From NCBI GenBank assembly GCA_963793265.1, contig CAWBZI010000002.1, positions 800,001-864,000 on the forward strand: a stretch of 64,000 bases of DNA, given 5' to 3'. A program made the position numbers and the translations under genes. Source of the DNA: an uncultured cyanobacterium. GTDB lineage: Bacteria; Cyanobacteriota; Cyanobacteriia; Phormidesmidales; Phormidesmidaceae. Position 1 is the first letter of the stretch. Every line of letters starts with the position of its first letter. The notes under the pieces are model-generated. The model was not told the DNA's origin. It searched no databases and saw nothing but the letters and a program-made list of their open reading frames with translations. Positions 27,277 to 59,861 of this stretch are shown in pieces.

Positions 27277-27447
27277 CTAGCATCGATTTAGCTGCAAAAG
27301 TTCGGGCACCATCACTCTTAACTTTTGTGCCAGTAATTCTAACGTTTCAGCCTCAGTTGCTAAGCCAGGAACATCATCACTCGTCGCCACCCACACTTCA
27401 GCCTCATCATCCCAAAAAGCATCAATCTTGCAGGTTGTCTGACTCAT
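27277..27447 (-). CDS. DUF1902-family (HicB-like fold) small protein, possibly 3'-truncated
   Basis: AFWDDEAEVWVATSDDVPGLATEAETLE...VPELL; GGAG SD upstream of ATG at 27447. Confidence 0.8.
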   Translation of the reverse strand: MSQTTCKIDAFWDDEAEVWVATSDDVPGLATEAETLELLAQKLRVMVPELLQLNRC

Positions 27448-27520
27448 ACTGACATCTCCCTCATTCTTTGAGCCTACCTGAATAGTTCTCGCAATTGCCA
27501 AGGTTTCCTGTCAAAAGATG

Positions 27521-27548
27521 TTGACACCCGTAAAAATACTGATACGCT
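27521..27548 (+). promoter_or_regulatory. Sigma70-type promoter of cassette copy A
   Basis: TTGACA-N16-TACGCT with extended TG. TACTGATACGCT is identical in copy B. Confidence 0.7.
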
Positions 27549-27554
27549 AGTTTT

Positions 27555-27752
27555 ACGGCTGTTGCCCTGTCTTAAACCCACTCGGCAATCGCTCTAACCG
27601 CTCAAAAATTTAGCAAGCCGCCCGTGTTAACTGCTACGAACAGCCAACACAGGCTCGCCCCTTAACTGCTCTCGGCAGTCAAGAGGTTATGGAATATGAT
27701 ATTCCATAGCCGCCCTGACTCATGACAAGTTGGGGCGGCTAAATTTTTGCGC
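27555..27752 (+). ncRNA. Structured leader RNA, copy A (putative terminator/antiterminator switch; family not recognised)
   Basis: 12-bp pairing 27603-27614/27738-27749; hairpins at 27620-27654, 27662-27682 and 27685-27711; terminator-like stem 27707-27741 followed by a U-tract. Compensatory changes against copy B. Confidence 0.7.
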
Positions 27753-27778
27753 TTTCTTCAAACTCATCTCGGAGAAAC

Positions 27779-28129
27779 GTGAAAATGACCATTCGCCTCA
27801 TGAGACTGCCTGGCCTCGCGCTCAGGTTGCAAACCCATTCGACTACTTTTCCTGGATCCCTAACCTCAGACGCTATAGATCAAGACTTCCTGAATCCTTT
27901 AAGTGGGCCTACTCGTAAGCAAAATAAGGGCGATCGCACCTGCCAAAAAGAAGAACTGCGCCACATTCTACTCGGCTCGCCCGGCGCAATTCAGCAGGCC
28001 ATCCATCAGCTACACGTATTGAACTACGCAGAAACAGTACTGTGGAGCCCGACTACGGCGGTGGACGATCGCATCATCATCACGCCAGAGCAGGGAGAAG
28101 CCATGAGCTTATTGAGGCGATCGGTATAG
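27779..28129 (+). CDS. Small hypothetical protein, paralog of 59292..59603
   Basis: GGAG SD and GTG start. The core LRHILLGSPGAIQQAIHQLHVLNYAETVLWS...GEAMSLLR aligns to the second copy. Confidence 0.8.
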   Translation: MKMTIRLMRLPGLALRLQTHSTTFPGSLTSDAIDQDFLNPLSGPTRKQNKGDRTCQKEELRHILLGSPGAIQQAIHQLHVLNYAETVLWSPTTAVDDRIIITPEQGEAMSLLRRSV

Positions 28130-28246
28130 TTTGACACCGGTTCAGGATAAGCGTTTCATGCTTACCGGCAGATCCTTGTATCTTAGGAGCAAGGCATCTG
28201 CGGGTGCCAGCCAAATGACTCTTAATGCGTAAACAATAAAAAGCCC

Positions 28247-58229: not shown

Positions 58230-59213
58230 TTATCTAGCGTCTTTTTGTTGCGCTAGCCAGGTTTCTAAGTCTTCAATCGATGAAAAGTTGAGGAGGGCGA
58301 TCGCCAACGATTCTATGGCCTCCAGGCTAAGTGCTTCGACTGCGGTACTCAAATGCTCGGGCAATTCGCCGAACTTTCCAACTAGCTGACGCTGAAGCAG
58401 CGATCTACCTTCTGCTTGGCGACCTTCTTGTCGGCCTTCTTGTCGGCCTTCCTGCAAACCTCGCTCAAATCCGATGCGCTCAACGCTGGTGATGTAGGGC
58501 ACTTTTCGCGTCTCCTCGTAAGTTTTTAGCTCTGTCCAAAATGAACGCTCTAGATGCTTGGGTAGCACCATTACCCAGTCTATGAACCGGAATAGGTTTA
58601 CGATGTCTGCCCGATTATATCCCTTTTCGTAGAGTCGCCGAATGAGCGTGAGCTTCCATTCTTTGCGGCTTTGCTTGTCTTGTTTGGTTTCCTGGGCTTT
58701 GAGGTGGGTCATCACCACGACGGCGAAGGGGTTGTCGCTGGCTTCTAGTGCTGACCAGCGATTTTTGTAATCTAGCAGCTTCACCATACCGAAGCGAAAG
58801 GACAGTGACGTGTCAGGATAGTCGAAGCCATAGTGCTCGGGTCGCCAGCTTGCGTTGGTGTCGCACAGTATGGCCAGGCTTGTAGCTGGACGGCGGAAGA
58901 TGTCGAAGATGCGCAGGTTGTATAGAAACATTCGCTCGGGAAATTTTGTTTCGCGAGCGGCTTGAACTTCGACGTGGACTAGAAGCCATAGTTCTTTGCC
59001 TTGTTTGCGCTGCACCTTTACGAGCTGGTCGGCGAAGCGTCTGCCGGTTTCGGTGTCGGGTGCGATTTGTTGAAATTCTTTGTCTAGAAATTCGGGGGGT
59101 TTGCGCCAGTCGATGAGGTTGGCGGTGTGGGGGAAGAAGAAGGATATTGCTTCTTTGAAGTAGGTGCGGAGGATGAGCTTCCAGGGGCCATCTTGCGGGT
59201 CGTAAGCAACCAT
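58230..59213 (-). CDS. Rpn/DUF4351-type PD-(D/E)XK protein, intact copy
   Basis: YD..DGPWK, FLDKEFQQI, ADQLVKV, LVHVEVQ, PYITSVERIG, QEGR repeats, DUF4351-like tail (LALLNFSS..DL..WL). Confidence 0.9.
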   Translation of the reverse strand: MVAYDPQDGPWKLILRTYFKEAISFFFPHTANLIDWRKPPEFLDKEFQQIAPDTETGRRFADQLVKVQRKQGKELWLLVHVEVQAARETKFPERMFLYNLRIFDIFRRPATSLAILCDTNASWRPEHYGFDYPDTSLSFRFGMVKLLDYKNRWSALEASDNPFAVVVMTHLKAQETKQDKQSRKEWKLTLIRRLYEKGYNRADIVNLFRFIDWVMVLPKHLERSFWTELKTYEETRKVPYITSVERIGFERGLQEGRQEGRQEGRQAEGRSLLQRQLVGKFGELPEHLSTAVEALSLEAIESLAIALLNFSSIEDLETWLAQQKDAR

Positions 59214-59291
59214 TGTAGTCCTGGGGATTGCGGCATAATTCAAGCTGTACTAGTTAAACGGATATGGCTCTGGGAAGCGTTGGAGGCGGCG

Positions 59292-59603
59292 CTATACCTG
59301 TTTGCGTAGCAGGCTGATGACTTCTCCTGGTGTGGGAGGGAGCACTAGCGGGTCAGCGAGGGTGATTGCTCGGCTCCAAAGCAAGGTATCGGCGTAGCGT
59401 AGGGTGTGTAGCAGGTGGATGGTTTGGCGGACGGCTTCGGGGTGGCCTAGCAGGATGTGGCGGACGTACAGTTTGCCGTGGTCGGGGGCTGACGGTTCTA
59501 TTTGAAAGGGGTCGGGCGCTGTGGGCGGGGTTGTGTGGCGAAATGAAAGGCGATCGCGAGACGGGGCAGAGAGCAGATTGGCAGGCGTGAGGGTCGTTTT
59601 CAT
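59292..59603 (-). CDS. Small hypothetical protein, paralog of 27779..28129
   Basis: ATG at 59603; VRHILLGHPEAVRQTIHLLHTLRYADTLLWS...GEVISLLRKQV. Confidence 0.8.
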   Translation of the reverse strand: MKTTLTPANLLSAPSRDRLSFRHTTPPTAPDPFQIEPSAPDHGKLYVRHILLGHPEAVRQTIHLLHTLRYADTLLWSRAITLADPLVLPPTPGEVISLLRKQV

Positions 59604-59644
59604 GGCTTCTTCTGAGGGGTTCGGGGTGTCCGTGTAGCGAGGAA

Positions 59645-59825
59645 GCCCAGAAAAAATTAGCCACCCCAACTTGCCAAGAGTTAGGGTGGCTATGCAATGA
59701 TATGCATAACCTCCTATCTGCCTGTAACAGACTGGGGGCGAGTTGTCGGTATTGGCTGCGAACCAATGCCGACAACGGCTAATTTTTTCGAGGCGGGTTG
59801 GCAACTACGCCTGTGCGTAGCCCTA
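59645..59825 (-). ncRNA. Structured leader RNA, copy B
   Basis: 13-bp pairing 59777-59789/59650-59662; terminator-like stem 59658-59692 with U6 tract; same order of hairpins and same conserved linkers (CTCGCCCC, GAGGTTATG) as copy A. Confidence 0.7.
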
Positions 59826-59831
59826 AGCATC

Positions 59832-59861
59832 AGCGTATCAGTACTCTTTTGATTGTGTCAA
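59832..59861 (-). promoter_or_regulatory. Sigma70-type promoter of cassette copy B
   Basis: TTGACA-N18-TACGCT with extended TG, matching copy A. Confidence 0.7.

Follow-up and report, generated by a model that had tools for sequence, protein, structure and literature searches.

A covarying leader RNA with shared helix strands precedes a family of small orphan genes in Phormidesmidaceae cyanobacteria

Introduction

What does a long and intricately folded leader do in front of a small gene that belongs to no recognised family? The question is raised by a cassette that occurs twice in a stretch of 64,000 nucleotides (nt; the window) from an uncultured cyanobacterium of the family Phormidesmidaceae (assembly GCA_963793265.1, contig CAWBZI010000002.1, positions 800,001 to 864,000 of the forward strand). 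Copy A extends from a TTGACA box to a stop codon (27521-28129, + strand), and copy B has an identical layout on the other strand (59861-59292, −). The original prediction, made from the letters of the window, read the cassette as a promoter, a leader that can fold as terminator or antiterminator, and a small orphan gene, and proposed an attenuator, a riboswitch-like element or a stand-alone small RNA. All the elements that it listed are present in both copies where it had placed them. Our results indicate that the leader is a real, so far uncatalogued structured RNA that is tied to one protein family, and that it probably acts in cis as a switch on the gene that follows it.

Covariation in the leader RNA

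The recurrence of the cassette is not due to chance. Searched with a profile of copies A and B, the 5.68-Mb genome yields 12 full copies (E values from 1e-76 to 5e-21), each followed by a paralogous open reading frame (ORF) of about 100 amino acids (aa). The alignment of copies A and B has 679 columns and a mean column identity of 73%; the best-kept blocks are the extended −10 box TGATACGCT, the A-run with TTAGC, CTCGCCCC, GAGGTTATG, the GC-rich hairpin with its T-run and the C-terminal half of the ORF. None of 200 shuffled sequences is as stable as the fold of copy A (z = −6.45).

We built two covariance models, R1 from the 12 copies and R2 from 21 same-genus sequences, the latter including long-range and post-terminator helices, and scored covariation on 77 aligned matches from many genomes. 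From 5′ to 3′ the RNA consists of a hairpin (P1), a C-rich run, an A-run with UUAGCC (the 5′ strand of helix P0), P2, a C-rich joiner (J2/3), P3, a GGAGG-type joiner (J3/4), P4, a terminator-type hairpin (T) with P5 as its upper part, GGCUAA with a U-run (the 3′ strand of P0), and P6. P0 is a long-range helix in which the A-tract and UUAGCC pair with GGCUAA and the U-tract. P6, which is found in all genera, joins the pyrimidine strand right after the U-run to the Shine-Dalgarno (SD) region before the start codon.

Across the 77 sequences, 93.3% of the cells hold standard pairs and 42 of 51 pairs changed on both sides. The covariation score is 0.430, compared to 0.046-0.073 when the 3′ partners are slid by one to three columns, and none of 500 shuffles reaches the observed values. 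Fitting the alignment to the model inflates the pairing and covariation figures somewhat, and the sequences are related; we therefore take these numbers as strong support and not as a probability. The changes are spread over all scored helices: 11 of 12 pairs changed on both sides in P0 (94.1% of cells paired), all nine in P2, three of four in P3, eight of nine in P4, four of eight in P5 and seven of eight in P6. Compensatory cells reach down to the foot of P4, where column pair 196-254 is AU in two, 197-253 is UA in four and GC in one, and 198-251 is CG in three. Two stems in which the original prediction had noticed compensation between the copies are indeed compensated (GGTTATGGA/TCCATAGCC versus GGTTATGCA/TGCATAGCC, and TAGCCGCCC/GGGCGGCTA versus TAGCCACCC/GGGTGGCTA). 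The pattern supports a five-helix junction domain, in which P2, P3, P4 and P5 would be closed off by the long-range P0.

The covariation could also reflect a palindrome at the DNA level. G-U cells outnumber A-C cells by 98 to 3 in P0 and by 360 to 105 overall. Hence, pairing is selected in the RNA of this strand and not in a DNA palindrome.

In copy A, P1 is a predicted hairpin at the 5′ end of the RNA (about 27553-27597), taken from the minimum-energy fold; its length and sequence vary among copies and its hairpin potential is kept. The 5′ strand of P0 (27598-27614) consists of the C-rich CCGCUC followed by CAAAAAUUUAGC. Its last 12 nt (CAAAAATTTAGC, 27603-27614) are perfectly complementary to 27738-27749, as the original prediction had claimed. 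P2 (27620-27654) is a long hairpin with an internal loop. Between P2 and P3 lies the conserved block CTCGCCCC (27654-27661), and the joining strand J2/3 (27655-27664) is kept across genera as UCGCCCC in the genus of the window and UAACCCC elsewhere. P3 (27665-27679) is a hairpin of the form ACUG...CAGU with 99% of its cells paired. J3/4 (27680-27686) carries a purine block, GAGG at 27683-27686 and GGAGG in most genera, of which G27685-27686 belong to the foot of an extended P4. This extended P4 (GGUUAUGG.../...CCAUAGCC) spans 27685-27711, and its last 4-5 nt (27707-27711) double as the 5′ foot of the terminator stem. T itself (27707-27741), with the foot AGCC:GGCU and P5 at 27712-27736, is followed by AATTTTTG. 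The 3′ strand of P0, GGCUAAAUUUUUG (27737-27749), includes the U-tract (27744-27748) and is common to the foot of T and to P0. The anti-SD strand CGCUUUCUUC (27750-27759) is the 5′ strand of P6, and its first nucleotides are also able to extend P0. P6 of copy A pairs 27753-27759 with 27771-27777, the SD sequence GGAGAAA, which aligns with GGAGAAAcccATG of the paralogues and is followed by a GTG start at 27779 (together 27771-27781). The gene encodes an orphan protein of 116 aa (27779-28129).

Several further pairings were tried and gained no clear support. The original prediction had CGCCCC pair with the 3′ arm of the terminator, for which no cognate preference is seen: the duplex energy is −9.62 for cognate and −9.69 ± 0.17 for non-cognate strands. 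Duplex energies likewise show no cognate preference for J2/3 (CGCCCC) with J3/4, nor for the 5′ C-run with the 3′ arm of the terminator; by eye, lineages L056, L075 and f3 look compensatory for the J2/3 and 5′ C-run pairings. A mini-ORF starting from GAGGUUAUG in P4 keeps neither its start codon nor its frame across copies. GCUAAA on the 3′ side of P1 can form a local hairpin with UUUAGC in only two or three copies. For a kissing contact with UUGCCAA near P1, the P5 loop UUGGCAA is complementary in copy B and partly so in a few others; this loop is invariant, and the contact is therefore without covariation.

A separate observation concerns J3/4, in which GGAGG/GAGG (27683-27686 in copy A, 59713-59709 in copy B) is a near-invariant, perfect SD core about 90 nt 5′ of the real SD sequence. 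It could form pairs with the anti-SD strand or be a binding site for ribosomes.

Comparison with known RNAs

Is the leader a member of a known RNA class? The original prediction did not recognise one, and Rfam 15 (4227 models) agrees: there is no match at the gathering threshold in the 64-kb window and none at ten loci that cover both leader subtypes and five other lineages. At E ≤ 10, the region 27450-27850 yields two matches only, both at chance level (GP20-b with 15.5 bits and a gathering threshold of 36.2, and S4-Bacteroidia with 14.2 bits and a threshold of 34.7).

Full-text literature searches gave no description of the leader, the supplements and database of PMC12873609 aside, where a fragment of the motif could be listed. 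According to the article itself, that study is a comparative catalogue of cis-regulatory RNA structures in cyanobacteria published in 2026, which searched the flanks of 931 KEGG-defined orthologous groups in a genome set including two Phormidesmis priestleyi genomes. As the orphan family has no KEGG term, it would provide no anchor for a search of the kind that the article describes.

Shared strands and the terminator hairpin

The original prediction had the terminator stem compete with another fold, in which the A-tract and UUAGC pair with GCUAA and the U-tract while the hairpin at 27685-27711 holds the 5′ arm of the terminator. Covariation supports this alternative fold. The AGCC at the end of P4 pairs either with GGUU/GGCU at the start of P4 (the extended P4) or with the GGCU after P5 (the foot of T), and this GGCU can pair instead with the AGCC in the 5′ strand of P0. 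Two states can thus be written for the same RNA: state 1 has the full 12-bp (base pair) terminator stem abutting the U-run, and state 2 has the extended P4, P5 alone and the complete P0.

All three competing pairings are 93-100% compatible across the alignment. The pair 251-322 in the foot of T is AU in 52, GC in 12 and GU in seven sequences. Among the four columns that compete here (81/322/251/198), the commonest combination is A,U,A,U (50 sequences), and the first three columns are G,C,G in ten sequences (nine G,C,G,U and one G,C,G,C). Hence, in these ten the change of the shared U to C is accompanied by changes in both nucleotides with which it can pair. The arms of T prefer their cognate partners (duplex energy −20.6 versus −16.6 ± 0.3 for non-cognate arms), and the two states are close in energy: enforcing T against the inner P0 with the extended P4 gives a mean difference of −0.49 kcal/mol, and state 2 is favoured in 30 of 70 sequences.

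A terminator scan calls both 27707-27741 (with the tail AATTTTTGCG) and 59692-59658, with 14 pairs each. The five A:U pairs between A-run and U-run are A-U in 74-76 of the 77 sequences, while flanking P0 pairs vary (CG in 34 versus GC in 20 at one pair, UA in 33 versus CG in 19 at another). Pairing alone would tolerate G-C in the U-run, and because the U-run is nevertheless invariant we read T as a terminator; in our reading the A-run would be invariant because it is needed to sequester the U-run. P0 also reaches beyond the U-run, by 3.84 bp on average when paired to its cognate strand; over 200 shuffles, non-cognate strands give 2.50 ± 0.15 bp and never more than 3.05. This part of P0 can exist only in RNA that has been read through.

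The mutual exclusivity that had been proposed for the two folds holds for one part of the structure. The 4 bp at the foot (AGCC:GGCU) do compete, and in energy calculations the outer A:U clamp forms alongside the full terminator hairpin. Because the outer A:U part of P0 and P6 form in both states, the difference at equilibrium is local. An effect on termination, if there is any, must be kinetic and would have to be settled while the U-run is still inside the polymerase.

A second leader subtype

A profile of the protein finds 24 paralogues in the genome, twice as many genes as there are full copies of the cassette. When the filters of the covariance-model search are turned off, 11 of the remaining 12 paralogues turn out to have a diverged leader, which we call type B to set it apart from the type A leader described so far. 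The leader is therefore present at 23 of 24 paralogous genes (12 near-full and 11 type B); the single paralogue without a recognisable leader, even with filters off, lies at G000:C4:698456-699520 (L119), where G000 stands for the genome of the window.

Type B leaders (L117-L126, L026 and L027 include them; examples are G000:C2:492353-492824, C5:176438-176890 and C1:1527426-1527919) lack the A-run and the U-run and keep the junction, that is P2 to P5, the joiners and AGCC/GGCU. Their pairs were scored directly on a MAFFT alignment of the 11 sequences. In P0 of type B, GAGUUCUGGUUUCC pairs with CAGAACUC upstream of P2 and closes the junction (11 pairs, 95% of cells paired). Alternatively, GAGUUCUGGUUUCC pairs with GGAAACCAGAA right before the AUG to form P6 (11 pairs, 89.7% paired). 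At G000:C2:492353-492640 the strands are CAGAACUC, GAGUUCUGG and CCAGAA. As 6-10 nt are common to P0 and P6, these two helices cannot coexist.

Here too, shared nucleotides change together with both partners. Where column 200 changes from U to G (three sequences), columns 11 and 250 both become C, and where column 199 changes from G to A (one sequence), both partners are U. In five of the 11 sequences the energies of the P0 and P6 folds differ by no more than about 3 kcal/mol. The layout of type B is that of a translational ON switch: the ribosome-binding site would be released once the sensor domain closes.

One domain is thus found on two platforms, one based on a terminator (type A) and one on the SD sequence only (type B). 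The same domain on terminator and SD platforms is the pattern of established riboswitch classes and other regulated leaders. This second subtype without a U-tract, the anti-SD helix, the extension of the clamp past the U-tract and the copy number all go beyond what the original prediction contained.

Distribution and gene linkage

Of 151 genomes sampled within the family, 105 have matches to model R1, covering 15 of 18 genera and 83 of 116 high-quality genomes; this search alone reported 679 matches. Five genomes searched in depth hold 31, 22, 16, 9 and 4 matches. Outside the family, 9 of 150 cyanobacterial genomes sampled evenly across the phylum have matches, which adds four further families; the remaining 25 sampled families gave no match, one of them in 0 of 50 genomes. 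As these counts come from genome samples, a family without a match is one in which the leader was not found, not one in which its absence has been shown.

The suspected tie to an uncharacterised protein family is borne out. For 53 of 57 RNA matches the protein gene lies at most 700 nt downstream on the same strand, and two of the four misses are at contig ends. A conserved promoter-like box precedes the RNA across copies, and in most copies 26-48 nt separate the U-tract from the start codon. With so short a distance there is no room for a promoter of the gene's own, which would then be expressible only by read-through. Of the forms that the original prediction had left open, the cis-acting leader is favoured, and a stand-alone small RNA is less likely for the same lack of room.

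Two loci combine an intact leader with a decayed gene. At G000:C2:476074-476700 (L024), the conserved C-terminus is lost after ...EEPLIMTP in a manner resembling a frameshift, and in a same-genus genome (L035) the ORF ends after eight codons (MKTTTPCI).

The encoded protein family

The protein of copy A has a variable N-terminal half, rich in Pro, Thr and Gln, and a conserved C-terminal core of about 60 aa with the motif RHILLG...WS...GEAMSLLR. Pfam, NCBIfam, PADLOC and PHROGs contain no significant family for it (best ArgR, E 0.089). PADLOC gives only a homing-endonuclease model at E 0.05 for copy A and nothing for the other two proteins scanned. Sequence profiles of the PDB do not match (best Smc, E 0.1), and the ESM Atlas contains unnamed cyanobacterial clusters only. 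In a profile search of 1.84 billion cluster representatives, 807 match at E ≤ 0.001 and 292 at E ≤ 1e-10. The 150 matches listed are 56-185 aa long and, judging by length, none of them is fused to a known domain; the names of the relatives are those of Phormidesmis and Leptolyngbya-like cyanobacteria. One relative (P0121, 163 aa) contains two matched stretches of the domain, an apparent tandem duplication within one protein.

The AlphaFold2 model of the full-length protein is poor, with a predicted local distance difference test (pLDDT) of 52.9. Residues 52-116 modelled with a 148-row alignment give a pLDDT of 78.6 and a predicted template modelling score of 0.62; this core has a strand at 8-15, a helix at 17-29 and a strand at 57-64. 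Judging from the model, this would be an orphan family of β-α-β-β domains of about 60 residues. Fold searches with the core return generic split β-α-β matches (best E 0.66 with Foldseek, best Z 4.2 with VIA-align). The matches at this Z include the E2 protein of the papillomavirus BPV-1, a weak resemblance with a root-mean-square deviation of 4.9 over 61 residues, and no chain reaches Z 5.

The core is predicted to form a homodimer, with a score of 0.66 compared to 0.00 for the best control. At least 99% of contacts are common to the separate runs, and the partner has a pLDDT of at least 79. The mark set for this score is reached by 20 of 30 proteins solved as same-chain pairs and by one of 23 solved as single chains, counts that hold only roughly here because our own alignment was used. 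The predicted contact is antiparallel between the first strands of both subunits (β1:β1′). With such a dimer, the protein may have a symmetric nucleic-acid target, either in the leader or in a TGTCAA-N4-6-TTGACA repeat at the promoter.

The proposed promoter

In copy A the proposed promoter (27521-27548) consists of a −35 box TTGACA (27521-27526), a spacer of 16 nt and an extended −10 box TG-A-TACGCT (27540-27548). The extended −10 TGATACGCT is almost invariant in the 12 copies, and a TTGAC-type box at a constant distance is seen in other genera too. A consensus promoter scan calls no promoter at the sites of copy A or copy B, because the −10 hexamer TACGCT fits TATAAT at only three of six positions. 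Our assignment of a putative promoter therefore draws on conservation and on constant position and spacing across copies.

Homology among the 12 copies starts about 40 nt upstream of the −35 box. In copy A the conserved block 5′ of the promoter (27483-27520, +) includes TGTCAAA (27509-27515), which is an inverted repeat of the −35 box, so that TGTCAA(A)-N4-6-TTGACA overlaps the promoter (27509-27526, and the same place in same-genus copies). The inverted heptamer is matched at six or more of seven positions in 9 of 25 same-genus copies, compared to 1.6% of shuffled windows. Among the leader copies compared, those of other genera do not have the repeat. A dimeric regulator may use it as an operator.

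Copy B and the genomic neighbourhood

Copy B repeats this arrangement on the − strand. Its proposed promoter (59832-59861) comprises TTGACA (59861-59856) and TG-A-TACGCT (59840-59832), and its leader RNA (59650-59831) is matched by R1 with 174.7 bits and by R2 with 192 bits. After P1, the 5′ strand of P0 lies at 59789-59777, P2 at 59776-59742, P3 at 59731-59717, P4 at 59711-59688, T at 59692-59658, and the 3′ strand of P0 with the U-tract at 59662-59650. The region up to the gene (59604-59649) contains the anti-SD strand (59647-59639), a loop with an insertion of 17 nt and the SD region (59612-59605). The gene (59292-59603) encodes a paralogue of 103 aa (profile match E 1.6e-32). Antisense to copy B (59742-59776, +), the P2 hairpin together with GGCTAATTTT is called terminator-like, and the A-run of the leader could also stop antisense transcription there.

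Homology between copies ends at the stop codon, with no repeats on either side of the cassette. The 42 ORFs that flank ten of the loci include no conserved neighbour gene. Several cassettes adjoin genes for PIN, Uma2 (three loci), Fic/DOC, DUF5615 or helix-turn-helix proteins; copy A adjoins a divergent DUF1902 gene (27277-27501, −) and downstream of copy B lies a gene for a DUF4351-containing protein of 337 aa (58230-59243, −). These neighbours hint that the cassettes live in accessory regions, and no more than hint, since such genes are common in cyanobacteria.

Discussion

How could such a leader work? We consider it probable, though well short of certain, that it is a cis-acting switch on termination, translation or both, with the closed junction as the ON state. 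The cassette would be a single transcription unit, in which a promoter of the sigma-70 type drives a leader RNA of about 190-230 nt together with the gene for the small protein. The sensor would be the junction closed by P0, and the 3′ strand of P0 would double as the expression platform. In the OFF fold, GGCU would pair locally with AGCC and complete a GC-rich intrinsic terminator of 12 bp before the U-run, while the strand right after the U-run would pair with the SD region (P6). In the ON fold, AGCC would be held in the extended P4, and GGCUAA, the U-run and the next few nucleotides would be held in P0, so that the polymerase reads on into the gene and at least part of the ribosome-binding site becomes free. 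Type B would make the choice between P0 and P6 only, which amounts to translational control. The gene would be switched on by anything that makes the closed junction more stable, and switched off by a factor that keeps the 5′ strand of P0 occupied. The leader might respond to a small molecule, to temperature or to the encoded dimeric protein.

Several observations weigh against this switch. First, the compensatory cells are not independent events, as the sequences are paralogues and relatives of each other. Second, the competition for strands in type A concerns 4 bp only, and the overlap between the extension of P0 and P6 is 2-4 nt in most type A copies. Third, the minimum-energy folds of the full leader form the outer P0, the T/P5 hairpin and P6 together; hence, equilibrium folding alone predicts no freed ribosome-binding site. 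Fourth, in type B, three copies with a weak or short P6 favour P0 by 8-14 kcal/mol. Fifth, 2-3 nt (AAA, AAG or AUC) separate the stem of T from the U-run, and a non-U spacer at this place should weaken intrinsic termination. Start site, termination at T and read-through are all inferred from sequence, and the only associated gene is an orphan that gives no pointer to a ligand.

The comparison with ordinary intrinsic (Rho-independent) terminators is mixed in the same way. T resembles them in its GC-rich hairpin of 12-14 bp and its run of 5-8 U. It differs in the non-U nucleotides between stem and U-run, in that the U-run and the nucleotides after it covary with a distant upstream A-run and C-run, and in the gene that follows 26-48 nt downstream without a promoter of its own.

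What would the switch respond to? One tentative answer, which we regard as possible but would not bet on, is that the junction serves as the aptamer of a so far undescribed class of riboswitch, which senses a small molecule or a nucleotide second messenger not yet linked to a cyanobacterial RNA. Through the 4-31 leaders per genome, the orphan dimeric proteins would then form one regulon under that signal, and both platforms would have evolved on the same aptamer. ON-type riboswitches and attenuators such as the purine riboswitches pbuE and add offer a close parallel: they too have a multi-helix domain with a long-range closing helix in a cis-acting 5′ leader, the 3′ strand of the closing helix is common to the foot of the terminator or to the anti-SD strand, and both platforms are known. 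Unlike in these riboswitches, the closing helix of our leader includes the U-run of the terminator, paired to an invariant A-run, and in type A only 4 bp are exchanged. Moreover, Rfam has no match for the leader, and all of its 4 to 31 copies per genome stand before one orphan gene family.

A variant of the switch reading that names the effector is autogenous control, which we think somewhat unlikely: the encoded protein, as the predicted homodimer, would bind its own leader, the leaders of its paralogues or the −35 inverted repeat, and shut the cassette down when abundant. RNA and protein are always found together, the C-terminal domain is predicted to dimerise far above the best control, and the full-length protein is not confidently folded alone, all of which would fit a protein that acts on its own leader. 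The core also bears a weak likeness to dimeric nucleic-acid-binding domains such as that of papillomavirus E2, and the TGTCAA box 4-6 nt upstream of TTGACA would be a suitable target. However, the fold searches return no clear match to a solved dimeric β-sheet nucleic-acid-binding domain (RHH or papillomavirus E2-like), no known nucleic-acid-binding family matches the protein, and the inverted repeat is limited to one genus, whereas RNA and protein are conserved far more widely. Known leaders under autogenous control by ribosomal or other RNA-binding proteins are likewise tied to one protein family and can act through sequestration of the SD sequence. Ours differs from them in a protein that belongs to no recognised RNA-binding family and in a larger, junction-rich RNA domain. 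Most protein-binding leaders are also simpler than a junction of about 130 nt in which many unpaired nucleotides are conserved.

One could also argue that the terminated leader is itself the product, either as an antidote RNA in the style of type III toxin-antitoxin systems or as the subunit of a small ribonucleoprotein, and that the terminator sets the ratio of RNA to protein. The order of promoter, structured RNA, terminator and gene indeed resembles the layout of ToxIN, the cassettes are present in many diverged copies (4 to 31 per genome), and their neighbours (PIN, Uma2, Fic/DOC, DUF1902, DUF5615 and DUF4351) include no conserved metabolic gene and recall the accessory neighbourhoods of ToxIN. 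In addition, the U-tail of a terminated RNA would be paired with the A-tract at equilibrium, which would protect its 3′ end. Nevertheless, we consider this explanation improbable. ToxIN carries tandem repeats; our leader is a single structured RNA in which Tandem Repeats Finder reports none (27400-28200, minimum score 30, 0 rows). The protein has no significant PADLOC or PHROGs family, is unrelated to the toxins known to PADLOC and is far smaller than nucleases of the ToxN type. The covarying P0 pairs beyond the U-run and P6 lie in the read-through part of the RNA, as does what defines type B, which has no terminator U-run at all; these parts serve the mRNA and point to control in cis.

Less probable again is a constitutive, structured 5′ untranslated region that confers mRNA stability, or that fixes expression at a low level because the terminator leaks and the ribosome-binding site is masked. 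A folding pathway or breathing of the junction, and not regulation, would then explain the alternative pairings. That P0, the hairpin and P6 coexist in the minimum-energy folds of type A is in accordance with this explanation, as are the small size of the competing segment in type A and the fact that no effector is known. It does not account for the three-way covariation at shared nucleotides in both subtypes, for the nearly equal energies of the two folds, or for one domain on two different expression platforms.

Finally, a miniature mobile element with terminal inverted repeats or a recombination site would explain the copy number and the inverted repeat of 12-20 bp (the P0 strands) that flanks a core of about 130 bp, but such a DNA-level repeat is already refuted as far as sequence analysis can tell, by the excess of G-U over A-C within P0 itself, by copies that are 60-75% identical and not near-identical, by homology that runs from promoter to stop codon without flanking repeats, and by an orientation to the gene that is always constant.

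If the leader is the switch that we favour, it would represent a large uncatalogued class of regulatory RNAs in a poorly studied branch of the cyanobacteria, and an unusually good orphan-riboswitch candidate for a ligand search, with hundreds of natural variants and two kinds of expression platform to work with. The design of its closing helix may be of interest for termination in general, as the terminator's own U-run is paired to an invariant A-run 130 nt upstream. The leader would also tie together a family of at least 807 clusters of small proteins that are annotated as hypothetical only, and give a handle on when these proteins are made. In the genome of the window, which belongs to a lineage of thin filamentous cyanobacteria, a leader that looks built for on/off control precedes nearly every gene of the family.

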